A stretch of 64,000 nt of DNA, taken from Hydrolagus colliei. Taxonomy: Eukaryota. Shown in pieces: positions 4,275 to 59,200 of this stretch. Position 1 is the stretch's first letter. Each line of letters opens with the position of its first letter. The translations under genes were made by a program, and so were the position numbers. The notes beneath the pieces were generated by a model, which was given only the letters and a program-made list of their open reading frames with translations, made no database searches and was not told the origin of the DNA. The stretch is taken from contig CM068743.1 of assembly GCA_035084275.1 (NCBI GenBank), forward strand, positions 37,510,001 to 37,574,000, read 5' to 3'.

Positions 4275-4454
4275 CTGCACAATTGGTGTCTTTTCTTTTG
4301 AAATCCCTTTTACTATATTGGATAATCTGGTCTCAAGTATCTGCTCAGTTTTGAGATTGCCTGCCGCTCCAGGCAGGGGAGGAAAGTTGGATAACCCCAG
4401 CTCAAAATTGGGAGACGGAGGCTTCGGCGGAGGAGGCGACTGTGTCTGGGGTCT
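4275..4454 (-). CDS. LARP4B: LARP4B coding exon RPQTQSPPPPKPPSPNFELGLSNFPPLPGAAGNLKTE...PIVQ
   Basis: tttcag acceptor, CAG|GTACTG donor, 180 nt, phase 0-0; conserved FELGLSxFPPLPG motif. Confidence 0.93.
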
Positions 4455-6219
4455 CTGAAAACACAATAAGATTACTGAAACATTGTCGATTGAATACCCG
4501 GGGAAAACCTCGGCCGAGACTAACCGGATTGATACATGCGCATACATACTTTTAGTATTGATATTTAGTATACATACATACATACATAAAGAACATACAT
4601 TCATAACATTTCCTGCTCTGTCTAACCTTCCAGGTGGCATTACATCAAATTGGTAGACAGCATTTACAGATACCAATTACAAACTGCCTTCGCCTCAATA
4701 CCATCACATAAAATAAACTGCATTAAATTTCAATAGTTTGACATTTTAAATATATTCCTTCCAATTTAGTGTCACGCCATCCTGGACCAGCCACAATGAC
4801 ATTTTTATGCTCGGACTTGAGCTGAGTAGAAGGGAAGATAAACAGACAGGTTTGAATTCATTACTTTATGCAAAGAATGGGAAAACTATGGAATAAATAA
4901 CCAGGTGATGTGTGGAGATAGGCTGGGTCTACAAATACAAGGAAGAATTAAGAGAGCCGTTGAATAAATCAATGTATGTAATCAATATATGCGTTTAAGA
5001 GATTAGATTTTTTGTTTGAGAGCATTAATTATAATTAATCTGGGAGCACGATGGTAGACATTAGAATGGCTTTTCTTGTTCCCAGATTGTGACCAGCAAG
5101 ATGGAATATGATGAGGTGGGTGGGTGGAGGGATTTGTAGGGAATAAAATAGTAAATGTGGAAGAGAATATGGGAAATAGGAAATTGGTATTAGGACTGAT
5201 GACTTAATTACCCACTTTACAACAAATGATCCCCACCGTGTCAGATTTTGATGGTTATGTTTTATTAATATCACACAGTAACTGCATGAGTGTGGAAGGC
5301 ACAGTCTTAGCGATGGAGGTTTTGTCAAAATACTTTGTTTCCAGTGGAGAGGGGGGGAAGGGAGGGAAGGAACAGAATTCAAGCAGGGTTGTGTTCTGCC
5401 ACAAAGCCTTTTCAGATTGTTCTTTGCAATTATAGCAAATGAGGCCACTTGGAACTTGTTGAAAGGTGCACACACTATAATCAACTATTCAATTTGGATT
5501 TCTATTGGGGGTAATGGAAGGCAGTGGCACACGTTTAGATTTTGAATTTTCCACAGAGCAAATTGCCAACTACTGCAAAAATGCCAACAATATCAGAATC
5601 ATCTTCTAATCGTCTCAATGTGCTTCACAGAATATACTGTAAGGTGAATTAACTGTATATTTGTGGGCGAATCGAGGCAGCCAACTGCGCACAGCAGTGT
5701 CCCACAGACAGTCACGGATTGAAATGACCAATTAATTATTGTTTTTTTCGGGATTATTATTAGGCTTGTGGAGTAAGGATTATTATTACACCAGTAGAGT
5801 CATCAACTCAAAGGTGAATATTTTTTATATGTCTGAAACTAATTGTTCCAATCGCATAAATTACAAAATGACAATATGATATGGCGCCTAATCACATCTT
5901 TGAGACGTCTCAAAGCGCTTCACACAGTAATGTACTGTGAAGTGAATTGACTGCAATATTTTGTGGGCAAAACATAGAGAAACATAGAGAATGAGAAACT
6001 GTTCTGTTTGAATAAACTGAAAATGGTCATAATCCCCCGGAAAACCAACTAGCAGCAATGTTTCATGTCGTCATAAACCTCTCTTTCCCCCACCACAACT
6101 AATCAGCTAACTGAAAGCTAAGGAACTTAATACTAGCCCGAATCAGCATCTCTGCGCTCGAGTGTTGTACATTGACTCTCTAACCTTAATGAGAATATTT
6201 AAGCCTTAAACCTGCTCAC

Positions 6220-12953: not shown

Positions 12954-14402
12954 CCAGGTACTAGACGAGATTTTTCTCCTCTTAAACATAGAAATATATA
13001 TATCCACCATAACAACTCAATTCCTAAAATTGAAAGAGCAAAAAGCTACTTGTCCTGAGATAAATGATCAACTATAAAAAAGGTAATATTGCTTGAATTA
13101 ACATTACATAGTGCAGATACTCTCAATTTAGAGCTTGATATCTCTAAACACACCAATGCTCTTTTTTGAACTGTTTCCTACAATTTTATATTGTTTTGAT
13201 GGTCACAATTAGAACAGTATTCTACATGAGGCTGCAATGAAGTCTTTCCACCCATGTCAAATGTCAATGATGTTACCCAGTATTTCACAGGTTTAATAAC
13301 TGTTCATTACTAACAGGAAACATAAAAAGGCAATAATGGGGCCATTCAGACCTTTGAGCATTTTCCACCAGTTTAGCAGACCTTGACGGGGGGGGAGGGG
13401 CGAATGTCCAAACTTTTGCTGAGGGCCAGGTTTTGGATTTAAGAAATGTCCGCAAGGCTACAAAAGCAATATAGGCAGACCTCGCTTAACCTTGCTTCTG
13501 TCACCATTGTTTTGTTATTACGTTGCTGATACATAGGGAAATATATATTCATTCAACATCGCGTTTTTCCCTATTACGTCGTTGCGCGAGTGGAATCAAA
13601 TGACTTTGGGTAGCGTAAGCGTATATAGATCTCAAATGTCCGATATTCTTGCGCGGGTTTGCATAATGTTTCGCTTAAAGTCATACTTTTCGCAAACACA
13701 ACTACGACATTAAGCGATGACTAAGTTTGTTTGCTATCCTGTTTGTTCAGTCCTGTTGCCAGGCAGAGCCTGAGCCCCAGTCCCCACCACCCCCCCATAA
13801 CTGTCTGCTAATTGGCTCAGGGCGTGCCTGATGCCTGTATTTACCCATTGGACTCTGAAATTGGGAATGGCTCGTGGGCCAGATGCAGTCCGGGGGCCAC
13901 CAGTTGGAGCATACTGACCTTTCCAAATCTTTTCATCCCAATGCCCCACCTTTTCGCCATAACTTTACCACCCAAGTATCTGTCTTGCTGTCAAATATTC
14001 TTGTGGATTGCTTCTCTACAGCTTTGCAGTGTAGAGCATTCCACATCTTGGCAACCCTCCGAGTGAAGAAACACTGCCTCAGTTCTAATGAGCTAATCTT
14101 TGTTCTGATTTCAAGGCACTACATGTGGCTTGTAATAGAAGCATTGAGTAAATGACAATCACCTACAACCTTATTAGCTTTGCTCACGCAATTCAGCAGC
14201 CACCTATTCCTCAAGACAAACCACAAGAAATTATTTCAGCAGTTTTCCGCAGTCTCTATTTTATACTGTGAGTTGTAACTAACAAAGAACAGGTGGCATT
14301 TTTTAAAAAATTACGTTTGTAGAAATTCCTTGACAGAATTTCTGTAATATATTATTAAATCAAATTGGCACACCCAAAACCTTAATAATAAACAAGCTTT
14401 AC

Positions 14403-14513
14403 CTGTTGTGCATCTGCCTCAGATTCAAATGTGATAAACCAGTTGTCATTGTAGGCAAACTCGCAGCTCATGAACTTTGGAAAATTTTCGCCTTTGAACA
14501 GTGCTTCTACCTC
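14403..14513 (-). CDS. LARP4B: LARP4B coding exon [37 protein letters not shown] (RRM)
   Basis: tttcag acceptor, CAG|GTAAAG donor, 111 nt. Confidence 0.97.
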
Positions 14514-14829
14514 CTGAAAATAAATAAGTGTTAAATTAAATTAATGCTGAAAACAAGTTCCAAATAAGCAACATTTATTTGAGCCTTTTGAAATAATGGA
14601 TGGATTTCTCCTTCTCTAAAGGAAAATAGAAATACTAATTCCTGGCTATTTTCAGAATTGCATTGGTGATCCTTCAAATTATAAAATGCAGCTCTAAAAA
14701 GGTGGCTGATCCCTCCAATTTTCCCTCCATGGAGAAAAAAGACCTTCACTTTGTATGTTGAGATCGGGAACTCATTCAAGGGTGGATTGGGGCACAACAT
14801 CTGCCTTTACATGGAGCTCCTGTATCTGT

Positions 14830-15155
14830 GGAGTCCTGTAGCTCAGTGGTTAGAGCACTCGCTTTACAAGCATGAGACCTGTGTTCAAATCCAGACAGAT
14901 CAGGGCGAAATTTTGGGCAAGTTTCCTTGCTCTACACGCCTAATAATAATTCCTCCAAAAAAAACCCCACAATAATAAAAATTGGTCATTTTCAATCCAC
15001 GATTATTTGTGGGACACTGCTCTGCGCAATTGGCTGCCGCGTTTCGCCCAGAAACATACAGTCAATTCACTTTACAGTGTATTCTGTGAAGCGCTTTGAC
15101 ACATCGACAAGATGCGAAAAGGCTATATCAAATGCAAGGATTATTATTATTATTA
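14830..15155 (+). mobile_element. tRNA-derived SINE
   Basis: Full head, body and tail. Confidence 0.9.
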
Positions 15156-15369
15156 TAAGCATTGAAGGCCCCAACGTACTGTACCAGCATTGCCACATTT
15201 TAAACTATGATACGACAGCTATAGAGGTTGCTATTTTCTTTCTTCTCAACTAGCAGTAAACTGAAGGCCACAAACAAGCAAAAACATTTTACAATTAACA
15301 GATGTACCTGGGAGAGGGAGAAAACATATAATCTAAAATATGAATCAGTTCAATAAGGTAAAATAAATA

Positions 15370-16925
15370 CCGTAAATCTCTGCGTATAAGGCGCACTCGC
15401 GGATAAGGAGCACACCCCACCTTTGACCACTTTTTGGCGAAAAAAAAGTGTTTTGCTATTTTTGCTATCATTTTCATGTTACTCTTTCTTGTTATTTGGT
15501 GGCCCTGAAAAGGGCCGTTGGTGTGTAAAGCTGTTATGCTAAAAACCCAGGAAATCCTCGTCGTCGGTCGCCTCGTAGAATACTGCGCGAAGTTCCTCGT
15601 CTGAATCTGCATACAGAAGGTCGGCGTCGCTGTTGTCGCTCTGGATGTGCTAGGTGAGTTGTCTTCCATCGTCTTCCATGCCACCCGAGCTGTCGGATAT
15701 ACACACTTCAGGAAACCGCGTCTGATGATCTCTGCTGGCAGCTCATCCCAGACTTTTAGTATCCAAGAGCAGATGGTTGGGAGATCTACCTTCCGCATCC
15801 GTCCCCCAGCCGTGTACGTCTTCTCCCACTGCAACATCCAGTCCGCCCAGCACCTCCGCAGGCCATCCTTGAAGGGCTTGTTCACCGCGACATCAAGAGG
15901 CTGGAGAAGCGATGTAATTCCGCCGGGGATCATCACGAGATTGGTCTTGGATTTCCGCAGGGTCGCCTTTGTGTGGTCCGACTTGTGATAGCGGAAGGAT
16001 TCGAGGATGAGAAGGCTTCTGCGCCTCCTCTTCGCCTCTCCTAGACGCAATGGAGCCAGTCATTGACGAGGTCGTCGTCCATCCAGCCCTTTGGGTGAAC
16101 CCTCACGAAGACGTCGGGCGGGAACCTCTGTTTGGGAAGAGTCTTCCGCTTAAAGATGACGTACGGTGGCAGCTTTTCTCCATCGGCGGTGCAGCCCATC
16201 ATTACTGTGAAGCAGTCCTTCTCGTGACCAGTCGCCGTGATGCTCATGCTCTTTGACCCTTTAGCCGCTATGGTGACGCTCCGGGGGACATCGAAGGTGA
16301 GTGGCGTCTGGTCTGCGAAGCCGATCCTGGTGAGCAGGTAGTCGTACTGGCGGCGCAGCTTGATAACGTACTTCTGGAAGCTGGTCGTCTTTTCCTCCAA
16401 GTCAGCAGGCATGTGCTGGGCGATATGCATACGTCGGCGGATGGATAGCCCGTGCCGAGACATAAAAAGCTAGCCTTGAAATCGACGATTCCCGCCCTGT
16501 CAGCGATGGTCCTGGCTTTGAGTCGAAGCGCTATCGTTGAAATTGCATGTCCCTCAAGCTGTTTCTCATGAACCCAGGCGCTGAACTCCACCTCCAGTTC
16601 AGGCCACTTGGCTGTACCTCTCCGTAGCGCCTTCTTTTGCTTGGGCATCTCCTCCAGAGAAGACTGCATTGAACGCCATTGGCGAACGTTGGATTCAGCG
16701 ATGCCGAATCTCCTGCCAGCCTCCCGGTTCCCAGCCTCTTCAGCATATTTGCAGACGGAGAGCTTGAACAAAGCGGCGAAAGCACGTCGAGACATCTCTC
16801 ATCTGCTACCGGTACTTTGAATTTTCGATGCTCAAAATTTCTTGTATCTGCGTATAGGACACCCCACCACCCTTTGAGAATTTTCGACGTGAAAAAAAGT
16901 GCGCCTTATACACGGAGATTTACGG
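15370..16925 (-). mobile_element. pogo-family (Tc1/mariner superfamily) DNA transposon, near complete, frameshifted POGK-like transposase
   Basis: 28-bp TIRs CCGTAAATCTC(T/C)G(C/T)GTATAAGGCGCACT with 2 mismatches; TA TSD at both ends; ORF pieces resemble Brinker-type DBD, CENP-B HTH and DDE_1 (ADQTP, KLPPYVIFK, GWMD, LQPLDVAVNKPFK). Confidence 0.93.
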
Positions 16926-18554
16926 TACTTCACTTTACAATGGAAAATAGCAATTTTTTAAAAATTCTAGATTTGGATGAAAGGTGACAAAATCATAATG
17001 ATAACTTCTCCTATTCAAGGTATTTGCTTAAAAGTTGCCAGAAACCAAAGCATCGAAACAAAATTTCACCAACGTAGGAATTTTGCCTTGGTTAGTTCCG
17101 GTTATCAGAAACAGATTCTTTTTTCCCCATTTGTATCTTCTCCCATCGAATATCTTTTTTGGGGGGGATAAAACTAGCCTTGTTATATATGATTCATCTT
17201 TCATTCTTTTTTTTCTGTTCTATTACATTTCCAAATTACCCCACCATCTTTAAAAACAAAAATCTGCTGAAAACTCGGCAGTATCACAACATCATTATAA
17301 CAGGTCAATCGGCCCTTATGTCCCGAAAATCTGGAACACTCTCCCTCAATCCCGCCACCTTGCCCCCTATCTCTCCCTTTTCAAGTCCCATCTGAAAACT
17401 TTGTTTTCGACCATGCTTACAACACCCACCCGCCCCCCAGCTCGGAATCAGGCTCTGCCACTATTAAGTGTTCTGAGGTGCTATATCGCCTGACGGGCAC
17501 TATATAAGTGCAAGTTGTTCGAAGCACTCTGAGACTCCTTCCGGCGTGGAGGGCACTATATAAATTGAAGTTGTTGTTGTTGCACTTCACATTTTCTGTT
17601 TCGTCAGGCAACGTAGATTTCAACGAGAAGCCTCGTAATAGTTAAAATGAAATCCTGCTTCCCTACCGCCTAATTCCTTTATACCGAGGTACTACGGAGA
17701 TTTCAATAGCAAGCAAATGATGCTACCACAGTAGTGCTTTGAAAGTCAATGTTTTACAGTGCTGAAACGCAAGGGATAGTTTTCTTCTTTTCAATTTTTT
17801 AAAATTATGATTAACAAACAAAATCCAAACAGGAATGTTGATACATTAAATGGAACAATACACTGAATATTGATTTGGGGGTGAGCATGTCGAACTGAGA
17901 ATTCACTCCCTTATCAGCAGACGGCCATCATAACCTGAGGCTGATTAAGCATAAATTATGGATACTATTCAATATCCCTAAGGAATCATATCACTAACCA
18001 ATCCAAGTCCGGAAGCCATCACCATTTCAAATTTAGATAAAACGTAAATTGACACAATACCATGTACACTTATATATAACGCGTTTCATGTCAGGAAGCA
18101 TCCCATAGAGGCATTTTGAAATACTTACATTAATACTTCCACCAACCAGGGTGATTACCTGGCTTCGGGTTTTGATATTTGAGATGACTGCACTGTACTC
18201 AAGATAATAATAATCCTTACATTTGATATAGCAGAGCTGCCAACATTTTTTAACAAAAAAAGTACTTCTGAAAGCTAAAAACAGTATGTTGTAGTTAAAA
18301 AAATGATTTTTCCCAGAAACTACCACTACTTAACGAAACAATTACAGAGCGAAAAGATCCCAAGTAAAATGGGGCTTCAAAATCCCCTGTGTGGCAAAAA
18401 TTGCATTAAGCGGGAGGCCCATACTGTGTTTCCGTATATGAAAGAAATTGTTCCCAGTAATGCCTTGTGCCTAGCCTAGCGCCCAGCGCTAACATTTACA
18501 GTGTATCAGCAACAGCATAAGGAGGTAGCACTGCTATTGAAGGCAGGGAGAGAG

Positions 18555-18770
18555 TTAAAGAGACTGAGACAGAGAGACTGTGAGTGAGATTGTGACAGCC
18601 AGAGATTCAAACAGAGAGAGAGAGAGAGAGAGAGGGACAGAGAGAGACAGAAAGTGCGCGACCCAGACAGACAGAAAGAGGGAAGAGACACGGAAAGAAA
18701 CACAGAGAGAGAGAGACACACACACAGAGGGAGACTGAGACAGAGAGAAGGAGAGACAGACAGACAGAGC
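18555..18770. repeat. (GA)/(GACA) compound microsatellite
   Basis: Read directly. Confidence 0.9.
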
Positions 18771-20351
18771 ATGGAATTTCCAAAATTCGGATTTTCCAAA
18801 AAACATATTTTAACAAGAAAAATTGTACTGCCGTATTTACTTCAATTTACAGTACTAGATACGGCAAAAACCTACTGGTTGGCAGCTCTGATATAGCTCT
18901 TTTCACGTCTTCTAGACGTATTAAAAGCGCTTCACAGAATATACTGTGAAGTCAATTGACTGTATATCTTAAGATGTTAGTTTAAGTAATGCCACCAACT
19001 TAAAGAAATGCTACAGATTTACCATGAGGTAACGCGGTGTCTGTAGGTGAGATTTAAACCAGTTCAACCAAACTGCCTTTTCATATAAATCTCCACTACA
19101 GCCTAATCGTTGAAGAATATGCCTTAAGCAATACAGTTTTTCATTGAGGATGATTTTGTAGGAAGATGATGTTTAACAAGCTTAACAGGATCAATATGTA
19201 TCCCAGGATGCAATGCTGTTCAAAGCAAGCTTCAAATGAAGCAAAACACAGGGACAAAAACCTGAAGTGTGGAGACCAACACTGAAGAATTAAAGGGATG
19301 ATTGACACAATCGGTCATAATAATCCTTGCATTTGATGTAACGCCTTCTCAAGTCTTCGAGACTGTAAAGTGAATGGATGGTATATTTTTGTGAAATAAA
19401 ATGTTTGCCAGTTGAAGGATTCTGGCTAGAGCTAACAATGATAACGTAATGAAGAAATCAGGATCTGATTAAAATTGAATCCCGAGTAACAACAAATTGC
19501 ATTTACAGAGCTATGTCCCAAGATTCTGGACACTCACTTTTAAAGCCCTCCAGGGTCATGCTCTCTTGTCAACGTCTGCATTCTATGAACATCACAATAA
19601 ACTATCCATTCTGCCTGCTCAGCAGGCACTGGCCAATTTGCACCCAGCAGGAATTTTGTAAATAATGGCCAAATCTGACTAAATACTAAACAGGCTAAAC
19701 ATTTCCAAGGAAAGGTACATGTTACAACTCAGTGCTAATGTGAGAGAAACAGCTTGACGGTCTAATGGGAGAGCAAAGGGATTATTAACCCGAAACAATA
19801 ATATCAAATAGACCCAAATGCCTGTTTGATCCCAAATTTTTTTGTGACTATGAAAATACAATGGTGAATGATGGCTCAATTCACGTTTCTACCAACTGAA
19901 TCAATTGGGGGGGAATGGAGGAGAGGTAAGGAGAAATTAAAGTATAGATTCTACATTCCCAAACAAATGCAGCCATACAGAATAACAGCTGCATTTTTCC
20001 AGAATTAGATTAACTTTGTTGTATATTGTTGTTGCCTTTTGCACACCCTAAGGACCCCAGAACAAGCACATTAATTGTTCTACTTGTTGCTTGGCAAATA
20101 ACAATAATAATCCTTGCATTCAATATAGCGCTTTTCACATCTTCTGTAATTGACTGTATGTGGATGAAACGCTGCAACCATTTGCACACAGCAGTGTCCA
20201 ACAAATAATCATGCATTGACATGATCAATTTATCATTGTTTTTTTTAACGGATTATTATCAGGCGTGTGGAGTAAGGCAATATTATTATTATTATCGTAC
20301 CAATTTCTGGACGCGAATATTCGTGTGTTCAACTCATTGCTCAAATCTTAC

Positions 20352-20455
20352 CTCGATCGGTGTCGATTCCGGTACCTCTCGTAAAATTACGATGCAGCGA
20401 TTCTGATTAGGTCTGACCTTTTCTCCCTTCTCATCCACTTGAACCAAAGGCAATG
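20352..20455 (-). CDS. LARP4B: LARP4B coding exon (S)[34 protein letters not shown] (La motif/RRM junction)
   Basis: ttatag acceptor, GAG|GTAAGA donor, 104 nt, phase 1 to 0. Confidence 0.97.
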
Positions 20456-20552
20456 CTATAAACAATGAGACTTTTGGTAAGCAACATTTTTTAAATTTAT
20501 TAAACAAAACACACAAGAGGAAAACAAGCTTGTCGCATTCGAACACACTTAC

Positions 20553-20689
20553 ATTTCAAAACGTCGACAATCAGGTCCATATCCGTACTCAGTTTCTTCA
20601 CATGGTCGAGGTTTGCTACTGTCAGTATTGGCACATACTGGTCGCTGTCCATTTGGGATACGAGGTACATATCGCTGGCCAGATTTTCT
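20553..20689 (-). CDS. LARP4B: LARP4B coding exon [45 protein letters not shown] (La motif)
   Basis: ttgcag acceptor, T|GTAAGT donor, 137 nt, phase 2 to 1; followed by a 97-nt intron. Confidence 0.97.
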
Positions 20690-21293
20690 CTGCAAAACGC
20701 AAAGTAGATTCATCAATACAACGACAATCATCAACACTGGCTCTCAACTTCATTGCGAGGCTCTGTATTAGTTGAGCATCAGCTCTTTAGGTATGTTCTT
20801 AGTTTGACATCGCTCCACATATTGCCCAATGAGTCGACGACATACCAAGGATTGTTTCCTTCATTAAAACCAAATAAAAAACATGGTGCACAGAGCATCC
20901 CTCCAATCCAAATGAGTGTTTGGCATGTAGGAATGTAACCACTGTTTCTAACAGTTGTGAACACACACAGTATTACCCTTCAATTAAAATTTGAATTGAA
21001 AAGATCATTGTGCCAATCAATAAAATAAATTGCGTCTAATGTCAGATATGGAAATGCAGGCGTATAGGTCATTGAAAGTGGTCTTGCCAGGTGACATGGC
21101 TGTGAATAAGGCAAATAGTATCCATAATAGTTTTATACAGAGGTTAAGAGAACAGAGGGACAGAAATTATGCTATATTAGTGTAAATCATTGGTTAGGCT
21201 GTAACTCGAGTATTCTGCGTCCAGTTCCAAGCACTTGACTTCAGGAAAGATTTTAAGGTCTTTGAGCAGGTGCAGAGGAGGTTCATGCGAATG

Positions 21294-21625
21294 ATAATAA
21301 TAATCCTTGCATTTGATGTAGCGTCTTGTCACGTCGAGACATCTCAAAGCATTTCACAGAATAGGTGAAATGCCGCAGCCAATTACACACAGCAATGTCC
21401 CACAAATAATCGTTGATCGAGTGACCAATTTTTATTTATTTTTTGAGGGGTTTATTACCCCCAGAAAAATGATCTACCTATTAACAACCAGATACCTACT
21501 TATTGCTAGGTAAACAGAAGCGTGTGAAATAAGGAAACTTGTCCAATGTTTCGCCCTGCCGGGAATTGAACCCAGGACCTCTCGCTTGCAAGGTAAATGT
21601 TCTAACCATTGAGCTACAGGAATCC
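21294..21625 (-). mobile_element. tRNA-derived SINE inserted in a decayed CR1 (about 21030-22040)
   Basis: CR1-like sequence (..VQRRFMRM) before the SINE resumes after it (ERLEKLDLYTLEQRRLMGDLIEV). Confidence 0.8.
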
Positions 21626-22395
21626 AGGGATGCTAAAAAATTAAGTGCTACAGTAATGATCGAGAGGTTAGAGAAGCTGGACCTGTACACATTGGAGCAG
21701 AGAAGGTTGATGGGAGACTTGATTGAGGTACACAAAATAATGAGGGCTTTTATCTGGATAAATAGAAGTTATCTTGTTGAATAGATAGAATATCTCGTTG
21801 AATCGATAAATAGAAGTTATCTCGGAGTCAATAACTTGGGACTATAGTTACAGGATAGATGCACAGTCACAAAAAGATCAAAAAGGAGAATTTAGGAGGA
21901 TTTGTTTTTCAACCATATGGTAGCAATGTAGAACGTCCTGTCCTGGAGGGTGGTGGAGGCAGAATCCATTGTAACTTTAAACGGGAAGTAGTATAGGCAT
22001 GTGAAAAACGTGGCTTGAAGAGTGAAGGGGATGTGCATGTTTTGGTATTGAAGTGATCTTAATAATAATCTGTCCAAAAAAAAACACAATAATAAAAATT
22101 GATCCATTTTCAATCCACGACTGTTTGTGGGGACACTGCTGTGTGCAATTGGCTGCCGGGTGTCGCCCACAAATATACAGTCAATTCACTTTACAGTATA
22201 ATACATGAAGCGCTTTGAGACATCAATAAGATGTGAAAAGTGCCAGATCAATTGCAAGGATTATTATTATTATTATTATCTTCCTGTGAAACCAATTAGC
22301 CTCCATTATGCACTGTGCTAAGTTTGTAACCCAATGTGGAAATAAGTTACCAAAAAATGTGTCACAGCATTCAGAAAACTATCATTATGATTTAC

Positions 22396-22489
22396 CGAGA
22401 CAAACAGAATTCCAATGTCTTTTTCAGCAATTCTCGAAGATCTTCATGGCCAACAGTCTGCTGTTCCAAAGAAGTCTGATCACCTCCTC
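22396..22489 (-). CDS. LARP4B: LARP4B coding exon GGDQTSLEQQTVGHEDLRELLKKTLEFCLS (start of La motif)
   Basis: tgttag acceptor, CG|GTAAAT donor, 94 nt, phase 1 to 2. Confidence 0.95.
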
Positions 22490-23428
22490 CTAACAGATAC
22501 AAAAGAAAAACAAATCATTTAGGCAGGAAAAACAGACAGCCAGTTTTCATATATCAACGCAATGCAACACATTATCCCCTTTCAAGTACATAAACAATAA
22601 TTATTATTATTCCAGTGTTGATTTTAAATCCATGACTTTGAATAAAGATGTAATTCCCCGTTCTAAATTTTATATTGCTTACGATAGACAAACTGGACAA
22701 AAAATAGGCCAGGTGCTGGCAATTAAAATTGTTTTAAGAGATTATTTTTTGGATTTGTATCTGAAAGCCAAACGGACCTTTAAGAATTTTAAACGGTCAA
22801 TATTGATTGCCACAGTAATTCTCCCAGCTCATTATCCTGAAGGCTGACAGGCCAATGTACTCAGATGAAATGCCAGCAACATGGCTAAGTAATTGAGTTG
22901 GTTAGAGCAAATGTGAACCGTAAAGGTATAACATTGGAATGGTGTGAAAACTGAGTACACATCCAAGATAATGTCTTAAGTTATCTTCTGTGCCAAATAA
23001 AGTGATATCCTATGGCAGGGAGGTGGTGGAGGGGAGGGTATAGAGAAATGAGGTGAGAGGGTAACAGATGTGCTTGGCAATGGGACTGTCAGAATCAAGA
23101 CCACCCAGTCTGGCTTATCAGTGAGACTTGGACTCAATACACACACTCTTCCCACTCAACTCCAATTTGCCTTTCAAGCGAAACCCTGCACAGATGGAAT
23201 GGTTCCAGTTAAGGACATCTAATGGGAATCCTGCCAGACAGTGCTCTCAATGGCAAACTATGCAGTTTTAGTTGGTGGAACCTGAGCAAATCTCTCAACA
23301 CTTTATGACTCTCACCAACCTGAACCTAATGCTCGCCGGAATGAAGCAAACAGGGAACATGTGTGCTTTCCACTCCAGAGAGTGAAAATTTCACACGTAG
23401 GTGGCATACACCTACATATGGAATCATG

Positions 23429-27465: not shown

Positions 27466-27601
27466 CCTCTGAGCAGGTATCGGGATTTGGCAACGGTTCT
27501 TCCCATGTCTCACAGGCATTGCTAGCAGCAGCATCAAGATTTAGCATGTGATTTGCCCATACTTTGGCGTTAGGATTCAAATCAGAAACCTTGGCCGAGT
27601 C
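27466..27601 (-). CDS. LARP4B: LARP4B coding exon DSAKVSDLNPNAKVWANH...CSE (PAM2w motif)
   Basis: ttgcag acceptor (phase 0), G|GTATGT donor; LNPNAKVW is the PAM2w motif of the LARP4 family. Confidence 0.95.
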
Positions 27602-29080: not shown

Positions 29081-29397
29081 AATTATAATAACAATCTTGG
29101 CATTTGATATAGCGCTTTTCACATCTTATCAACGTCTCAGAGCGCTTCAAAGAATATACTGTAAAGTGAATTGACTGCATATTTGTGGGTGAAACGCAGC
29201 AGCCAATTGCACACAACAGTGTCCCACAAGCAGTTGTGGATTGAAATGACCATATTATTGCGGGTTTTTTGGACCGATTATTTTCAGTGTATGGAGTAAG
29301 GAAACTTGCCCAAGGTTTCGCCCTGATCTGCCTGGATTCGAACACAGGTCTCACGCTTCTAAGGCAAGTATTCTAACCACTGAGCCTCAGGAGCTCC
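29081..29397 (-). mobile_element. tRNA-derived SINE starting about 25 nt into the intron after the giant exon
   Basis: Head GGAGCTCCTGAGGCTCAGTGGTTAGAAT; full body and tail. Confidence 0.9.
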
Positions 29398-29423
29398 ACC
29401 AGAGTTAAGAGATAGATACTCAC

Positions 29424-32400
29424 AGTCTGGTCATATTCATTAATCCATCCCCACACATCACTAGTTTCAGAGAGGGAAAGCGGGTAGGGATATATTCCCA
29501 TAAGAGCTACTGAAATGTCAACATTCTTTGATACTGGTTCTTGGGTTACATCCATTTGTTGTAGGTTGACCTCTTTCATAATTTCAGAAAAGCAGGTATT
29601 CCACAAACAGCTCGGCTGGTTGACCGAATTGGGCTTCAGCTGTTCAGAAAATGTATGCACAGATCTATCTTTGGCCACGGTATCAAAAGCTTGATTGACC
29701 TCCCACAACGGGGCTATTTCGCTTTGAAAACCATGTCCATCTATTTTAGGTTGGTCCCCAGACTCCCCTAGAATAACTTTCATCATCCCCATGACACATC
29801 TCTCACTATTTGCAGACGTTTCAGACAAACATCTCCCCTTTTCATCACAATCTGTGAAGTTCGAAACTTGGGGTATTTCATATGAAGGAGTTGACGCATA
29901 TCGGTCGATCTGACTTTCATCTGTAGAAAGTTCCGTGGATGCATAGAATTCAGTAGAGTCATATACATCTTTTGGAATGCTAGAAAAAGGAAAGGCCTCA
30001 CTATCTTCCATTGCTACTGCTGTTTTTAAACACTCAGCACCCTTTTGTGAATCAGTTTCAAAGCTGCACAGACTTCTACACTTGACTGAGTCCTCTGCGG
30101 TTCCATCACTCGTGTCATATGGGACTTGTGGATCTTCATTTTGTTTTCTGCATAGAGCTGGGTACTGTATCAACTCGGTGCTAAATATCCGGTTCAAGTC
30201 TTCACTTGTCCCTTCATCGCAGTATTTTGACAGATTCGCATTTACGTTGCCATCAATTCTGCTCCTCAATTGTGTATTTTCCACTGTTTCAGGACCTCTA
30301 AGCATCACTTTTTCTTCCCAAGCAGCTGCATTCAGCCAGGATACACATTCACTGCTCCGAAGATTCTGCTCAGTTATTTCATTCAAGACTATTTCTTTCT
30401 CAAGGTCTTTGAAGCTGTCTAAATCTCCACCTGAATTCGAGCACACATCCAGGTAGTTTTCCAGTACACCAGTAATTACAGAACAATTCTGAATGGCAAA
30501 ATCCCCTTCGCTGTCTACTTCTGAAGTAGAACCATTAGCTAAAGCCAATGTATCTTGGTGATCCAGCTTTACCTTATTGATGTCTGTGGCACTGTAATCA
30601 AACTCATCTTTCCGCTGCTGATTAGTTGCGTTCGTGGCCAACCTTTCAGAGTTCCACAAATTATTCAATTCATAATGATTATCAGCCACCTGCTCAGGAA
30701 CATCAGATTGTAAGGATGTCAGGCTGGCATGGCAGTCACTGTCAGGTATGTCGAACATAACACCAGTTTGCAAAACATTCTCTATGCAAATAGCGTCAAG
30801 ATTTTCCTCATCTTGACAACTGGCGTTTTGATTCTGCAGCTGCTCAACAATGATAGAATCACTGTCCTCATCAGAAGCCAGCACCCTGTCGTTAGCATGT
30901 GGATCAAGTTTCAAAACCTTCCCTTTGGCTGCTACTTGCTCAGGCTGTTGTCGAGCGGTAGATGTGGGTATCGATTCCAAATAGTCATCCAATTGGTTGC
31001 TTGGCTGCATGAAATACAGACATTCACCTTCTGGAGGTTCAGAGTACAAACCGTTTATACTTTCATCAAACTCGGTATTTTGTCCCACTTTTTGGAACGC
31101 ATCCGTATCACTCTGACGATTGGCAAACTCACCTTCATCACCACAGTCTTTCTGCAAAGTAGTTGGCGTACAAATTAAGTGGTTACGAATGTGCTCATCA
31201 CAAAGGGATTGACTGAAGTAATGGCTTGAAATTCCCGTAAAGCATGAATTAGGCATTCTTTCGGCCACAGAATTACAATGCAATGTTTGGTTCAACTTTG
31301 ATGACTCTTCCAGTCTCATTTCAGGCAAACCATCGGACAGATTTTGGTCATTTGCATGACTGCATGGGGCTGTCCCTTCATCCTCAAGCAGTTGGACAGT
31401 TGAGATTAGATCCAGCAGAATTTTAGATTCAGATTTTTTCTCATCAAGTGTCCATGTACAAGCCTCTTTGAAAACTGAATCAGAGGTTTCCAAATCAGCA
31501 AACTTTAGCGATGGTTCGAAAACATTCTCTGCAACTCCAATTACAAATTTTGAAGCAGGATCTGTTGTAGGCCTTGGAGGAGGATCAGAAAATTGCAAGC
31601 ACGTTCCATTGATAGCATCTGTTCCATATATGTGACAATCTCCTTCGCAAAGTTTCACAACTTGTTTACTTTCTGTTGATAAATACGCAGTCACAACTGT
31701 ACCTTTAATCGGGTTATTTTGCATGGGAGAACCCATCGCTATCTGCTTTCCATCACAACCAGAGTATTCTAACAACTTGCTAACGCTGGAGTACTTTGAA
31801 GCATTGTTGCCTGAACTAAGACAGTTGTTCCACTCGGACAAGCAAGGTTTCTCAACAACTGAAGGCTGCACAAAGCTGCCTTTCATTCCATATTTAGGTT
31901 GGCCATTGCGAGTATCTGCATCACATTCAGTTGTTTCTGCAAGCAGCCGGACAACACTCAATCTGTGGTTTGATAATATAGAAGCCTGCGCGTCAGTGTA
32001 TATTTCTGTAGAAACATTGTGTGGCATCATAAAGCCTGACTCTACTTGTTCCATTACTTCAGGCTCAACTGCCTCTCCTAGCTCAGCTGCAGCTGCCGTG
32101 CTTCCCAGCAGTGTTGAAAAGTCCTGGACAGACCATGTTAGGTTGTGCTTTCTCTCCACTCTAACAGCTGAACAATGCATCTCTGGAACAATGTTACAAG
32201 TAAAAGCAGGTGCCGCCTCATCTAGTTCATCATCTTCCACATCTATTGCACAGATACTGTAGAATTCATTTGGTCTGGGTTTTATATTTATTTCAGAGGC
32301 TACATGATTGGTATCCAGGATGTTCTCTTGTATGTTTTGCCTCCACGTTTTAATGCCTTCAACTTCCTCGGGCGTTTTATTTTCACCGAAATGTAACTCA

Positions 32401-33056
32401 GTCACTAAACGACATGAAATATTTTGGAAAATCTCACCGCTGGTTTGACAACTCTCCATATATTCTCCACTTGGAGGTTTTTCAGGGGTTGGAAGCAGTT
32501 TCTCATTCTCGGGGGAATCACTCTCAACGGTCGAATCAGGCATTCCTTCAGTTACATTCTCGGCACATTCGCCCTTTCCAGAATTTCCCTTCAAAGAATT
32601 AGCGAAACTCCACAACTTTCGGGATTCACTCTTCGAGTCCTCGTTCTCTGTTTTAACAGAGCACTGTCTCTTTGGCAAACCAAAGATATCCCACAGTGTC
32701 CTCCGCAAATTCGACCGGGAAGAATCTTTGGTGAGGAAATAATCAGTGACCTCCGCAAGATTCTCAGGGTGCTGAAAATGATTTGCATTCTGGTAAGAGC
32801 ATTCGTCATTTAACCAAGGCCAGAATCTCCTCCGGTTAGACTTGAACCCTCCTTGCCCCTGGTTGAGAGCACATGGAGTTTCCATCTTACCGTACTCTTC
32901 AGCTTGCACATCTAATTCATTATTTTCAGTGACATTGGCGCGACAACTTTGAATGCTTTCAAGGGTCTCTCTTCTTGTCTTCTGTAACAAGCTTGTTTTT
33001 TCACTGACCTGTTCAGGCACCACAGGGCCCCTCTCTTTACTGAAGCAGCAGCCCAT
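29424..33056 (-). CDS. LARP4B: Putative alternative giant first coding exon of LARP4B: 1211-aa acidic Ser/Glu/Cys-rich extension starting MGCCFSK
   Basis: 3633 nt without a stop codon or repeat insertion; strong start context CAGCATGG with an in-frame TGA just upstream; ends ACT|GTGAGT in phase 0, matching the phase-0 acceptor at 27601. Confidence 0.8.
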
Positions 33057-35109
33057 GCTGAGTCACGACAATGCTACTACACACTGAAGCTCAGAGCCCA
33101 TGAAATGAACTAACTGCTAACGCAGACGAGCCAACACCCGAGTACCAAAAATAGTGCGGATAAAAAAAACTGTGCTGATGTTCAATGTGCTCCTGTCAAT
33201 CAAAGCCTTGGTTCAGGGTTCGGCAGGGGGCAAGATTTAAGGCTGAAGGATTGTGGAGGGGCTGGGATCACTTGGCTCCACCCCCCTGTCTGCTGTCAAC
33301 ATGGCTAAATTGCCAGTCAGTCAATGGATCGGCAGCTGGCAATGTCCAGCCGTCAGTCAGGGGATGGGATGAGGGGGTCACGATGATCTAACGAAGGGGG
33401 TTAGCCAGTGGACTGAGTAGTCAGTCAGCTGGCTGAATAAGTTTAAACAGCTGTGCCATCGTGAAAAAGTGCAAATAAATGAGTCAGATTCAGCCAACTT
33501 TTTCCTGAATTTTGCAAACCTCAAAGTGATTGGGGGAGGGAAGGGGATTTTAAGCCTTGCTGACCTTCCACCCCACCCACCCCCTTCTAGCACTAAATTA
33601 ACTTTATATTATGAAAGTTTGGCCCCTAGGTATTTCCCAATTGTATACTATTGGGCTGGACCATTTTTGCGATGGGGGGTGGAAGAATTTCTAGAGTCCA
33701 AGTTAGTGCTACAATAGAACTAGATCAATTTATTTCACTCTTATTTTTATTTCTGGTATTAGGCAAATTCCACTCCATCTCTGATAGTTCCATGCGTAGC
33801 TGGGATGCATGGAATTCTTAGTTTGGTTTGGATAATCTGAAGCATAATGATGGATTATGACACTCTCTTTCAAATTACAGTTTTCTGTTTTTATTTCCTA
33901 AAGATGGTGTCCAGAAAACCTCTGCATGTCAAGTCGTAAGAAAGGCACAGCATAAAAGGAATGCATTGCAATATTAATGGTGTTCTTTGCCAGCCACACA
34001 GCTAAGGTTAATAGTCGTCATCCTTGCATTTGGTTTGGTGCCCTATTCATGTCAGGATGATGTCCCAGAGCTTGTCATAGAAGCTACCTTGAAGTGGAGT
34101 GATTTGTGGGCGAAGGTGCCAGCTAATTTATGCACAGCAATATTCCACAAACAGCCACTGAATTACCAATTTATTTTGAGGGACTGCTGGCCAGGATAAC
34201 AGAAGAAACTCCCTTCTCTATTCAAATAATGCCATGTGATCTTAAACATCCACCTGAATAGGCAGACAGGACTTCGGTTTGACATCTCATCCAAAGGAAT
34301 GCAATGCAATGCAACACGTCCTCAGGGCTGTATCGGAGTGTCAATTTAAGACTACGAGTCCATGAGTCTTGATTTCACAGCTTTCTGACTTGATCCACAA
34401 GACTGCTTCCACTGAGCCAGGTTAACATGTGGGATCCTTCATCCCACTTCCCAATCTGTGAACTTGTGTGTATGATGGGTTTACCTCAGATGCTGAAGTA
34501 GAGCATAGTTATAACACTATTTGTGGGCAGAAAAATCCTAGCCAGCAGTATAATCGGACATGACTGCCAGTCAGCTCTTCTGCATTCACTACAAGAGTCA
34601 GAAAGCTGACCGGTAACCAGCTCAAAAAACTAGCAGACTTCGGAACCATCGGGTTGTGACAGTCAACGCTTCCTACACATTGCATCAGGCAGCAACCTGA
34701 AGACTGGAAACTAGCCCTTTATTTAAAACAAAATACACACAAGAAAACAGCCAGCATTTTGAAACAAGACAACATGATTTGAAGTGTGCCAGCTACCTAG
34801 GTGCATTCTGAATGTTTCCATTCCAATTACACTATAATCAAACACATACTGTATTGTAATGCAACCCATTATAACAGGTTCTACTATATTCACCAATATA
34901 TTCGCCTATAATTTTAAATAGAAAGCTGAAGCTGTGTCATCATATGACATCTGTTCAAAAAACTCATGGGACAAGGATTAAGGCACAGAGTGGCTGAAGT
35001 AGAGGGGATGATGGAAGATATAAAAGGGGTGGGAGGGAACTGGGGCATGTTGAGATTCATGTTTCTCCTTTGTCTTCCTTGTCCTGCCTCCCCCTCTCTG
35101 TTAATCCTC

Positions 35110-35588: not shown

Positions 35589-36014
35589 ATCAACTGTCAA
35601 AAGCAGCAGAGGTTACATATGTCCTGAAGTAACCTCCTTTCTTTCTTCCTTTCTTTCTTTAATTCTCCTTTGACAGTGGTTTGTGGCTGTTTTAACATCC
35701 ATTTTAGTAAGGCATTAGCAAATCGGCAAAAAAAATTCTTAACCTCTTTTTTGTTCTTCTGGTCAGAATTCTCAATTTACTTTACTACTGGCATAGATAT
35801 GCTGGATCATTCTGTGCCATAACGACAACTATTCATAATTTTAAAACCATTTTAGATCTCTCCCGAGCTTCCTTTAATCAGTGCTCCTATAATAGGTCCC
35901 AACCTTTCCAGTATCTCCACATTACTATAACTATTAACACTGGTATCATTCTAATAAGTTGCTATTGTATCCTTACCTTCATGAGAATCCCAAAACATAA
36001 TCATCCAACATTAT

Positions 36015-36595
36015 CCAACACACTGGTTAGGCCTCAACTAGAGCATTGCGTCCAGTTCTGGACACCTTATTTCAAGAAGGACATTAAGGCACTGGAAAGG
36101 GTGCAGAGGAGATTCACGAGAATGATACCAGGAATGGGGAACCTTAGCTATGAGGACAGACTGGAGAAGTTAGGACTTTTTCTATTCGAGAAGAGAAGGT
36201 TACACGGGGATCTGATAGAGGTCTTCAAAATCATGAAAGGTTTCGACAGGCTAGATAGGGAAAAGTTGTTTCCACTGGTAGGTGTGTCTGTGACCCGTGG
36301 TCACAGTCTTAAGATATCTACCAAAAGAAGCAGAGGGGAGGTTAGAATAAATTTTTGTACTCAGCGAGTTGTTCGAATTTGGAATGATCTGCCTGAAAGG
36401 GTATTGAGGTCCGATTCGATAGCAGCTTTTAAAAGAGAACTAGATAGGTATCTGGGGAAAACGGGTTTGCAGGGTTATGGGGAGAAAACTGGTGATTGGG
36501 GTTAATGAAAGTGATGTGCTCGGTCAAAGAGTCAGCACAGATTCGATGGGCCGAATGGCCTCCTTTTGTGCAGTAACATTCTATGATTCTATGAT
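36015..36595 (+). mobile_element. CR1 LINE 3' fragment
   Basis: TLVRPQLEHCVQFWTPYFKKDIKALERVQRRFTRMIPG; (TTCTATGA)n tail. Confidence 0.92.
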
Positions 36596-38133: not shown

Positions 38134-38214
38134 CAGAGGAGAACTGTCTACAACTTCTTGCACTTGCTGCACCTGCGGTTCAGCCACAACTTTAGTGTCC
38201 TGGTCAGAAGTCAT
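38134..38214 (-). CDS. LARP4B: LARP4B canonical first coding exon MTSDQDTKVVAEPQVQQVQEVVDSSPL (exon 38134-38265 including 51 nt of 5'UTR)
   Basis: ATG at 38214, CTG|GTAAGA donor, ccccacag acceptor at 38266; matches the MTSDQDAKVVAEPQ N-terminus of LARP4B. Confidence 0.95.
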
Positions 38215-38316
38215 GAGCCGTCTGCTTTCTGGCTCTGCAGAGAGAATTTTTCTGCGCAGCAAGATCTGTGGGGCAAAATACAAAGTGTTACATTTCAGAA
38301 CTACAGTACTAGTAAA

Positions 38317-46106: not shown

Positions 46107-46670
46107 CAACATCAACAACAACAACAATTTACATTTATAGAGCGCCTTTCACGTCGGGAGGACGTCCCAAGGCGCTGAACAGGAGGCGTGTGACCAGAGC
46201 TGGGAGGGGAGTGTTTGGGAAGGGGTGAAACATGAAGGGGAGGTAAAAGAGTTCGGGGTGGAACAAAAGGCACGATCGAAGAGGAAAGTCTTCAAACCGG
46301 CCTTGAAAGAGGAAAGGGAAGAGACGAAATGGAGGGATTGAGGGATGGCATTCCATAAGGTGGGAGCGGAGAAACCGAAGGCCCGGCCTCCGATGGTGGG
46401 GCGGTTCGGGCGGGGGGCTTGGAGCAGGCCAAGTCCCGTTGAACGGAGGGTCCGGGTGGGCGTGTAGGGGGAGAGTAGATCGGTTAAATAGGGCGGGGCA
46501 AGGCCGTGTAAGGCCTTATAGGTGAGGACGAGGATCTTAAACTCGATCCTCTGGAGGATGGGGAGCCAGTGGAGACGGGCGAGGGTGGGGGTTATGTGGT
46601 CGCGGAGGCGGGTGCGGGATAGTACACGGGCTGCAGAGTTTTGGATGGCCTGCAGCCTATGAATGGAATA
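46107..46670 (-). mobile_element. L2 LINE 3' fragment (young subfamily)
   Basis: Highly similar to 52349-52910. Confidence 0.9.
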
Positions 46671-57970: not shown

Positions 57971-59200
57971 CGAGAGGAGGTGGAGAGCGAACGAGGCCTC
58001 GGCTTCAGTCAATCAGTCAGTTACCCGGGAACATGGCGGCCGCCATGCCGCCGGGCGCCGCCTGTGACTGTTGGCTCTTGAGGCCTCGGGAGGAGGAGGA
58101 GGACGAGAGCGGGGACTGTCTGCCATCCCTTCCCCCTATCTCCCTCCTCCACCACCATCTTAGGCCTCTCAACCTCCCGCCCACCTGCCGGTCTAGTCTG
58201 GTTGCGGCCGACAAGGCCTCCCCCTCCTCCTTTACCTCAGGCCGCTCGAGTGATGGTGGACGCCGCCGACAAAACAACAGGAAGGGAAGAGAAAGGGGGG
58301 AGATGGACCAGTAGTAAAAGATAATGATGGCCGCCGCCTATTAACGAACCTGTGTGTCGGGGGCCGCTCGCGCTCTTCCTCCCTCCCGCAGCCGCTGAGT
58401 CCGTGTGTGTTTGCGCGAGAGAGAGGGGGGCGGGGGGCGGCTGGAGGGAGGGCTGTACAGACCCAACTCAACACACACACACACAGCGGATGTCCCGCCT
58501 TCCCCCCACCTCCTCTCTCGCTGTCTGTCAATTATCCTCACTCTCTCATTCACTCACTCATACACATACATGGACACACCCACTCACCAAGCTCCACAGC
58601 TCCGATTGGTCCCGCGCAGCTGTCAATCACTATCCTTCGCTGCCACTCGCACCGGGTGTTCCTCCTTCTCCCACTCACTCCGTCTGTCAATCATCCTCAC
58701 ACTCACTCTCATTCACTCACATACACAGACCTACCCAATCACCAAGCCCCACTGCTCCGATTGGTCCGCACAGCTGTCAATCACTATCCTCCCACCCTTT
58801 CCGACTCCTCTGTCTGGAGTCGATGTCCAAACTCCCCCTGACACACACACCGGATGTCCCGCCTTCTATCTCCCTGTCTGTCGATTATCCTCACTCACTC
58901 ATTCACTCACATACATAGACACACCCACTCACCGTGACCCACAACTCCAAATGGTATATGCAGCTGTCAATCACTATCCTTTACCCCACCCATTGCTCCT
59001 CACGTCTTCCCAACCACACGCACAGGATGTCCCGCCTTCTTTCTTTCCCTATCTCTCCCTGTCTGTCAATCATCCCCACGCCCCCATTCGCTCACATAGG
59101 CACGCCCACTACCAAGTCCACAGCTCCGATTGGTCGGCACAGCTGTCAATCAGCATACTTTCCCCCCCTCCCCACTCTTCTCCGCCACACACTACTGCTA
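57970..59200 (-). promoter_or_regulatory. CpG-island promoter region with YY1-like sites and tandem CCAAT + TGATTGACAG elements
   Basis: The main CpG-dense stretch not explained by a transposon; AACATGGCGG at 58030; six perfect TGATTGACAG and three linked CCAAT boxes. Confidence 0.75.
58236..58400 (-). other. LARP4B: Probable non-coding exon 1 of LARP4B (5' boundary approximate)
   Basis: CpG-rich segment ending in a GAG|GTAAAG donor (GT at 58235-58234); a second possible donor CGG|GTAACT has GT at 58024-58023. Confidence 0.55.

Follow-up and report, generated by a model that had tools for sequence, protein, structure and literature searches.

Does the choice of a first coding exon give an RNA-binding protein of jawed vertebrates a membrane address? 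The window analyzed here, the whole 64,000-nucleotide stretch of Hydrolagus colliei DNA, raises this question. A first-pass annotation of it had noted an MGCCFSK start followed by an acidic dileucine word, EKTSLL, likened the pair to the endolysosomal anchor of LAMTOR1, and proposed an isoform that could tether poly(A) mRNPs and ribosomes to lysosomes or endosomes through a long flexible spacer. Few linkers that attach mRNAs and ribosomes to endosomes and lysosomes are described in the accessible text of PMC9249222, namely annexin A11, FERRY, and the fungal Upa1. We find that the host gene is LARP4B and that it offers a candidate with its own predicted anchor and sorting signal, carried on one separable exon and kept across jawed vertebrates. 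As the exon is separable, the long form can be tested without touching the short form.

A long alternative coding exon in LARP4B

The anchor words are real and lie on the minus strand, which had not been stated before: they are encoded by the 24 codons MGCCFSKERGPVVPEQVSEKTSLL, read from 33056 to 32985. The ATG at 33056, in the context AGCATGG, begins a 1,227-codon frame that runs to a stop at 29373-29375 (minus). The gene was identified as LARP4B from its La-domain exon, which matches PF05383 (E 4.7e-15), and from 13 more exon pieces that match Callorhinchus LARP4B at 82-100% identity (82-98% for the La-motif and RRM exons). The hallmarks of LARP4B are present at the locus: the La motif with its adjacent LARP4-type RRM, PAM2w, CR1, and CR2. 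The last two exons are outside the window, just beyond its start; they include that of CR2 (RKPSYAEICQR), some 4.5 kb away. The long frame has the short MTSDQD exon on its 5' side and the PAM2w exon on its 3' side, as follows.

38134..38265, minus strand: canonical short first coding exon, ATG 38214, MTSDQD...SSPL, 27 codons, phase-0 donor (equal to P0004 residues 1-27)
33063..33101, minus strand: upstream ORF of 12 codons, in frame with the main ATG, its TGA ending 6 nt before that ATG
29424..33056, minus strand: coding part of the long alternative LARP4B exon, 1,211 codons, with a phase-0 donor, ACT/GTGAGT, at its end
32985..33056, minus strand: N-terminal anchor, residues 1-24, M-G2-C3-C4-F-S6-K7-E8 plus E19-K-T-S-L23-L24, predicted myristoylation/palmitoylation and acidic dileucine
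29373..29423, minus strand: read-through past the donor to the stop, 16 codons, intron when spliced
27466..27601, minus strand: PAM2w (DLNPNAKVW) exon, common to both forms, acceptor 27601, phase 0
14400..22490, minus strand: La motif and RRM exons, at about 22395-22490, 20554-20703, 20352-20471, and 14400-14519
4275..4460, minus strand: CR1 (FPPLP) exon, by identity to Callorhinchus LARP4B

The phase-0 donor of the long exon matches the phase-0 acceptor of the PAM2w exon, and the two are in phase from chimaera to monkey. A 4,491-base contig from run X1, which behaves as genomic DNA and may be the source sample, covers 29340-33830 without a gap and with no listed difference in the anchor codons. 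No second copy of the long exon was found in the Hydrolagus colliei genome. A La-family search of the same genome gave seven loci, which we read as two LARP1-like, two LARP6-like, La, LARP7, and LARP4B; LARP4A was absent from these seven matches, perhaps because it went unscored or because the assembly lacks it.

The introns also hold repeats. Broken frames at 15295-16987 (minus) within a LARP4B intron resemble a pogo/Tigger-type DNA transposase, and the intronic fragments at 35711-36505 (plus), 46135-46670 (minus), and 52375-53673 (minus), whose surroundings are highly repetitive in run X1, are what we take to be LINE reverse-transcriptase-like pieces.

Entry into the long exon

Since an in-frame TGA lies 6 nt upstream, the Met encoded by ATG 33056 is the first residue. 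The sole AG between this TGA and the ATG is out of phase, so that exon 2 is unable to extend the N-terminus. No strong splice acceptor stands out upstream of the long exon. Two regions bear on its promoter.

33193..33202, minus strand: TGATTGACAG, a Prep:Pbx DECA motif, 137 nt upstream of ATG 33056
58025..59152, minus strand: putative non-coding exon 1 and main promoter, GC-rich, placed by sequence inference only, with six TGATTGACAG copies at 58620-59152

The word TGATTGACAG occurs seven times in the window against 0.42 expected, and six of the copies are upstream of putative exon 1. It is the Prep:Pbx DECA motif, which, according to the accessible part of PMC6023610, is often insufficient alone to drive expression. 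The copy near the ATG is a hint, recognized after the fact, that the long exon may have a separate second promoter. The six copies at 58620-59152 (minus) form a degenerate repeat with CCAAT words, which looks like an amplified Prep:Pbx/NF-Y promoter module. Additionally, TGCTGAGTCA, which we take to be an NF-E2/ARE-like word, overlaps the long-exon start codon at 33056-33065 (plus); it is the sole copy in the window, and 11 of 100 shuffles also yield one.

Conservation of the anchor

From the Hydrolagus colliei sequence alone the dileucine is unremarkable: [DE]xxxL[LI] is expected in 3% of random 24-mers of the anchor's composition, and the 1,211-residue exon holds four copies. Cross-species conservation removes this doubt. 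As the La-module list is rich in birds and in multiple isoforms per species, we made an alignment of 30 species picked to span the jawed vertebrates. M1, G2, C3, C4, E19, L23, and W1202 are invariant in all 30 and L24 is kept in 26, whereas only 63 of the 1,211 positions reach at least 70% conservation; none of the other three dileucine-like words falls among these 63. Residues 1-8 are identical in seven of seven species, while the spacer is 75% identical to that of Callorhinchus and 19-23% identical to the other six. The long exon as a whole is 74% identical to residues 1-1220 of Callorhinchus XP_007899383.2, and 74-75% to elephant shark against 19-23% to bony vertebrates. The check that the first-pass annotation had itself suggested, conservation of the anchor words against a diverging spacer, thus came out in its favor.

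Two further searches extend this picture. With the La-module region as sole query against proteins of 913-2,605 residues, 93 of the best 120 of 399 matches begin with MGCC. In every one of the 93, residue 16 is Glu and residue 20 is Leu, and the next residue is Leu in 88, Ile in 1, and Phe in 4, although these proteins are not independent because birds and several isoforms per species are overweighted. Of the other 27, most have their start within the exon, one is a bat model with a six-residue extension, and two open with MTSDQD and reach the exon at an internal point; anchor-less long forms may therefore exist. A profile built on residues 1-330 of 11 species, run against 1.84 billion representatives, gave 82 matches, all of them the long exon as judged by sequence, with no LAMTOR1, RP2, or evidently non-vertebrate protein among them by the same judgement; record names were consulted for 10 of the 82. 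MGCC is present in 80, of which 79 also have ExxxL[LIF], and the remaining two are incomplete exon pieces.

Among 148 distinct anchors pooled by their MGCC word, ExxxL[LIF] is found in 147, always with Glu at -4 and at position 16 in 131. Ser6 is kept in 140 of the 148 and Lys7 in 139, and the net charge of residues 5-15 ranges from -3 to +2, with 0 in the window. Bony vertebrates mostly have E16xxxL20L21, and chimaeras reach E19 through a three-residue insertion. Frogs carry LF for LL (4 of the 93; 5 of the 148), and one frog-like anchor, P0196, is without a dileucine motif.

Comparison with the anchors of LAMTOR1 and RP2

We located LAMTOR1 of the same genome by pattern. Its exon 1 encodes 14 residues beginning MGCCYSS and its exon 2 begins DREEGKPLL, which places E18xxxL22L23 beside the E19xxxL23L24 of the long exon, a spacing as LAMTOR1-like as had been claimed; in the human LAMTOR1 chain of PDB 6b9x, DREERKLLL occupies residues 15-23. 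The layout thus stands, but kinship does not. PF15454 (LAMTOR) has no match in the exon, in its first 40 or 60 residues, or in six long isoforms, and the same profile library detects the LAMTOR1 exons of this genome. Judged by these profiles, the long exon is not a LAMTOR-family member, and the likeness is one of design. LAMTOR1 and long LARP4B share nothing outside the acylation and dileucine words, and an intron after codon 14 splits the LAMTOR1 anchor, whereas the LARP4B anchor lies within one exon. LAMTOR1/p18, fission yeast Lam1, and budding yeast Ego1 likewise combine MGCC with an acidic dileucine near residue 20, have no basic patch, and use a lipid anchor, predicted in the LARP4B long form, to present a complex on the lysosome. 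The LAMTOR1 cargo is Ragulator and the Rag GTPases; that of the long form would be mRNPs. The accessible text of PMC10940682 reports that Gly2 myristoylation supports lysosomal localisation of LAMTOR1, and that of PMC5752196 reports that fission yeast Lam1 becomes cytosolic when Gly and both Cys are removed and leaks to the plasma membrane upon LL-to-AA substitution.

The first seven residues fit RP2 (XRP2) equally well. A genome search with the DNA pattern for MGC[CF]F[ST]K gave four matches, namely the long exon, RP2, and two short non-coding-looking frames. RP2 of this genome starts MGCFFSKKSKRK and has M-G-C-x-F-S-K at residues 1-7 in common with the LARP4B anchor. However, RP2 has a basic patch, KKSKRK, after MGCFFSK, which the LARP4B anchor does not, and its first exon has no dileucine, whereas the LARP4B anchor has ExxxL[LIF]. 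Dual acylation directs RP2 to the plasma membrane, as stated in the accessible sections of PMC2568879 and PMC13676036. Because the LARP4B anchor joins the first seven residues of RP2 to the neutral-to-acidic linker and dileucine of LAMTOR1, it most likely works like the LAMTOR1 anchor, as far as sequence can tell. The dileucine alone does not tell a lysosomal address from that of a lysosome-related organelle or from endocytic cycling.

The spacer and its conserved islands

The spacer has a net charge of -106 and falls on the disordered side of the charge-hydropathy boundary, and the long exon has no membrane-spanning or hydrophobic segment. AlphaFold2 with a 30-row alignment gave a mean pLDDT of 37, with 1,162 of 1,200 residues below 50 and one short helix; the alignment is shallow (30 rows, 15-18% identity), so the pLDDT is modest evidence of disorder. 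The spacer is thus predicted to be disordered, in keeping with the flexible linker first proposed. By the scaling law for disordered chains, its end-to-end distance would be about 25 nm. Four islands within it are conserved.

32229..32276, minus strand: island 1, residues 261-276, R-x3-F-Y-S-I-C-x2-D-x2-[DE]-L, core FYSIC-x-x-D at 265-272
32163..32171, minus strand: island 2, S-A-V, residues 296-298, conservation 0.93, 0.93, and 0.87 (30 species)
29874..29921, minus strand: island 3, residues 1046-1061, D-P-x-Q-V-D-x-Y-A-x-T-P-S-Y-E-I, conserved
29445..29495, minus strand: island 4, residues 1188-1204, Y-P-Y-x-L...W-G-W, just ahead of the splice to PAM2w, W1202 in 30 of 30

The four islands are probably binding motifs. 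In 145 distinct rows picked by pattern for the island-1 word itself, F is kept in 139, Y in 138, S in 140, I in 139, C in 142, and D in 140. The second half of island 3 has decayed in placental mammals, and an L-W word at 1151-1152 precedes island 4. Set beside the [WFY]xx[LIV] core in a disordered, acidic setting, island 1 has a conserved F-Y-S-I with D at +7; in its F-x-x-I with an acid at +7 it resembles an extended LC3-interacting region (LIR), for which it is a candidate. A FFAT reading of island 1 was dropped, as Ile is a poor fit at position 5. Pfam, PDB sequences, and the ESM Atlas, queried with the exon, the anchor, or island 1, gave nothing usable.

Predicted long forms across jawed vertebrates

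In the RefSeq predicted Callorhinchus isoform X1 (XP_007899383.2, 1,933 aa), an MGCCFSKE start leads through the long exon into PAM2w, and the same arrangement is found in Latimeria X1/X2 (XP_064410713.1). Isoforms of 727-761 aa from both genera begin MTSDQD, and the coexistence of long MGCC and MTSDQD models in these species indicates that the two starts are alternatives. Further fused models include zebrafish XP_021325871.2, Xenopus tropicalis XP_012819819.2, chicken XP_015137622.3, rhesus XP_015001818.3, and Mus caroli. RefSeq predictions joining the long exon to PAM2w span elephant shark, coelacanth, sturgeon, zebrafish, frogs, birds, monotremes, marsupials, rodents, and monkeys. Every fused long protein among these is a predicted model.

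Named intact long forms occur among primates in rhesus, crab-eating and pig-tailed macaque, capuchin, owl monkey, marmoset, titi, and mouse lemur, and among rodents in Mus caroli and Mus pahari; gelada and red colobus are represented by exon-only ORFs. P0291 (1,063 aa, 35 members) has an uninterrupted frame the length of the exon; it is of catarrhine type and identical to macaque at 88 of 98 N-terminal positions. No human- or ape-named record with the long exon was present among the records listed, which cover 15 of the 31 macaque-cluster members. P0210 (primate type) and P0235 (murine type), both single-contig records, are frameshifted near the start of the exon, probably through sequence errors. 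They might suggest that apes or mice have lost the exon, but this is unproven: P0261 and P0291 are in frame where P0210 breaks, and Mus caroli and Mus pahari are intact.

The profile search added teleosts, namely zebrafish, catfish, smelt, and perch-like fishes. The euteleost copies retain the anchor, a PAM2w-like word, CR1, and CR2 though their La module drifts. Among 17 proteins examined, two of them reference rows, LNPxAxxW is present in 15, CR1 in 16, and a clear CR2 in 16; the smelt model P0227 is without a clear PAM2w. P0227, P0231, P0256, P0263, and their relatives are annotated as 'uncharacterized' or 'NAC-alpha domain-containing protein 1-like' and keep the anchor. The La module of euteleost LARP4B-type proteins has evolved several-fold faster than in other vertebrates. 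We also asked whether the divergent euteleost 'uncharacterized LOC' proteins might represent a second duplicate with the anchor alone; this was unsupported, as the La-module tree (26 rows, P0253 omitted, one long branch) fits plain orthology with faster evolution.

Several models vary the exon itself. P0030, P0036, P0042, P0043, P0092, P0110, P0226, and P0268 have predicted donors, acceptors, or skips within it, and isoforms with such internal choices have spacers of about 330 to 1,480 residues, some long forms being anchor-less; splicing may tune spacer length. P0106, P0148, and P0161 comprise a tandem repeat expansion within the pig-tailed macaque spacer and one Xenopus tropicalis model with a spacer of about 1,480 residues; the frame is intact. 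Bat records P0115, P0307, P0308, P0310, P0311, and P0313 have an in-frame upstream Met 6 or 21 residues ahead of MGCC, which could give a non-myristoylated form.

Discussion

We describe a long coding exon of LARP4B that is real, deeply conserved, and apparently undescribed. Automated annotation already carries the long form, labelled 'isoform X1/X2' or 'uncharacterized protein'. A full-text literature search, with subscription journals and supplementary proteomics tables outside it, found no published description of it. In the accessible text of the LARP4/4B research papers checked, including PMC7356810, PMC4478348, and bioRxiv 2024.11.01.621267, the word 'isoform' is absent, and the corresponding part of an evolutionary survey of the LARP4 family describes the short N-terminus only (PMC7928011).

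The short form (LARP5; human NP_055970.1; Callorhinchus XP_042202748.1, 742 aa) comes from the same gene and has the same PAM2w, La motif, RRM, CR1, and CR2. It has a 27-residue MTSDQD start; the long form instead opens with 1,211 residues that carry the predicted lipid anchor and the dileucine, and is without the conserved short N-terminal 'P2+' region described for LARP4B in the accessible part of PMC7928011. From what is accessible of the respective papers, LARP4B binds PABPC1 via PAM2w (PMC7356810), binds 3' UTRs and stabilises mRNAs (PMC4478348), and binds RACK1 via CR2 (bioRxiv 2024.11.01.621267). The same three sources place it in the diffuse cytoplasm, in stress granules, and at the mitochondrial surface, using constructs of the short form as far as their accessible text goes (PMC7356810; PMC4478348; bioRxiv 2024.11.01.621267). 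Such constructs represent the short form, so two differently addressed proteins may be mixed up in knockdown and antibody experiments.

On balance, we lean towards reading long LARP4B as a protein that is dually acylated, is sorted by an adaptor, and tethers poly(A) mRNPs and ribosomes to late endosomes/lysosomes. Since the long form retains PAM2w and the La module as well as CR2, which binds RACK1, the likely product would be an mRNP tether at these organelles. The path to it would have six steps. The exon, its in-phase donor, and the common downstream exons are present, and both words are conserved against a diverging spacer. Splicing to the PAM2w exon, as RefSeq predicts in many species, would give a product about 1,900 residues long. 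Going by the known specificities of the enzymes, Met1 would be removed, Gly2 myristoylated, and Cys3/Cys4 palmitoylated. By analogy with LAMTOR1, Lam1, and Ego1, ExxxLL would then bind an AP adaptor, most likely AP-3 and possibly AP-1 or AP-2, confining the protein to the endolysosomal surface. The acidic disordered spacer would keep the RNA-binding part tens of nanometres off the membrane, and its islands may bind further partners. Finally, if the long form behaves like the short one, PAM2w would engage PABPC1, the La module 3' UTRs, and CR2 RACK1 on the 40S subunit, so that bound mRNAs would be stabilised, and translated at the organelle or transported on it. Against the tether, several bat and some fish records have an in-frame upstream Met that would block myristoylation if used. 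The LF of frogs, the long forms that lack MGCC, the RP2-like first seven residues, the loss of the 'P2+' region, the purely predicted nature of the fused proteins, and a published localisation away from lysosomes, albeit that of the short form, count against it as well.

An unlikely but still weighty alternative is that the protein is acylated and membrane-bound but localises mRNPs elsewhere: it may cycle endocytically from the plasma membrane, reside at the TGN/recycling endosome, or occupy an organelle related to lysosomes in particular cell types, such as a melanosome or an oocyte or secretory granule. MGCxFSK matches RP2, which dual acylation targets to the plasma membrane; [DE]xxxL[LI] is recognized alike by AP-1, AP-2, and AP-3; and a possible promoter of its own would suit restricted expression. 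However, the RP2 anchor has a basic patch and no dileucine, whereas that of LARP4B is neutral to acidic with invariant Glu and Leu, and Lam1, with a like signal pair, is described in the accessible part of its report as vacuolar only, reaching the plasma membrane once LL is lost.

Improbable, in our judgement, is a protein that sits on lysosomes or endosomes but serves turnover, either as a receptor feeding mRNPs, ribosomes, and stress-granule material into autophagy or microautophagy, or by sequestering PABP and mRNA from the short form. Autophagy receptors typically are long acidic disordered arms on a membrane anchor, a build that the long form would resemble, and its top-conserved internal island, F-Y-S-I-C-x-x-D, fits the extended-LIR core. 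Tyr, Ser, and Cys of this island, which a plain LIR does not need, are, however, conserved as well as Phe and Ile. LARP4B does enter stress granules (accessible text of PMC7356810 and PMC4478348), but the retained modules, in the short form, protect mRNA and promote translation according to the sources cited above.

We consider it very improbable that the exon acts mostly apart from the RNA-binding part, as a stand-alone anchored disordered protein that ends shortly past the donor or in short truncated isoforms, with the LARP4B fusion a minor product. The frame does continue 16 codons beyond the donor to a stop, many records are exon-only ORFs of about 1,000-1,200 residues, and some models end early after the La motif. 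The exon-only records looked up are, however, mostly unnamed contig gene calls, which cannot splice. Moreover, conservation ends at the donor, read-through tails vary in length and sequence, and the phase shared with the PAM2w exon is maintained from chimaera to monkey.

That the words are incidental, the exon being an annotation artefact or another start leaving Gly2 internal, is scarcely credible: the exon's 5' end may be set by its own promoter or by a splice from exon 1, with no strong acceptor standing out, and a 12-codon upstream ORF precedes the ATG, but translation from that Met must be what has kept a frame of roughly 1,000-1,500 codons open in all jawed-vertebrate classes sampled, with M1-G2-C3-C4 invariant and ExxxL at a fixed distance, and the in-frame TGA forbids N-terminal extension here.

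Returning to the tether on late endosomes/lysosomes, the broader proposal is more tentative, and we would place it a little short of even: jawed vertebrates, primates included, may have an undescribed single-chain lysosome-mRNA tether, in which exon choice turns soluble LARP4B into a dually acylated, AP-3-sorted protein. If so, PABP-coated mRNAs and RACK1-bearing ribosomes would be held on late endosomes/lysosomes for transport and local translation, and the LARP4B tether would sit beside the mTORC1 platform, anchored by a like signal.

Known linkers between mRNPs and organelles use lipid-binding or Rab-binding domains, or a transmembrane anchor. Annexin A11 on lysosomes, FERRY on Rab5 endosomes, and Ustilago Upa1-Rrm4-Pab1 on endosomes couple mRNPs or ribosomes to organelles, and Upa1 also has PAM2-type words; these linkers are separate adaptors, as far as the accessible text of PMC9249222 describes them. 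AKAP1-LARP4-PABP provides mRNP coupling at mitochondria (accessible text of bioRxiv 2024.11.01.621267). Long LARP4B would instead unite anchor, sorting signal, spacer, and RNA, PABP, and RACK1 binding in one chain, switched by exon choice.
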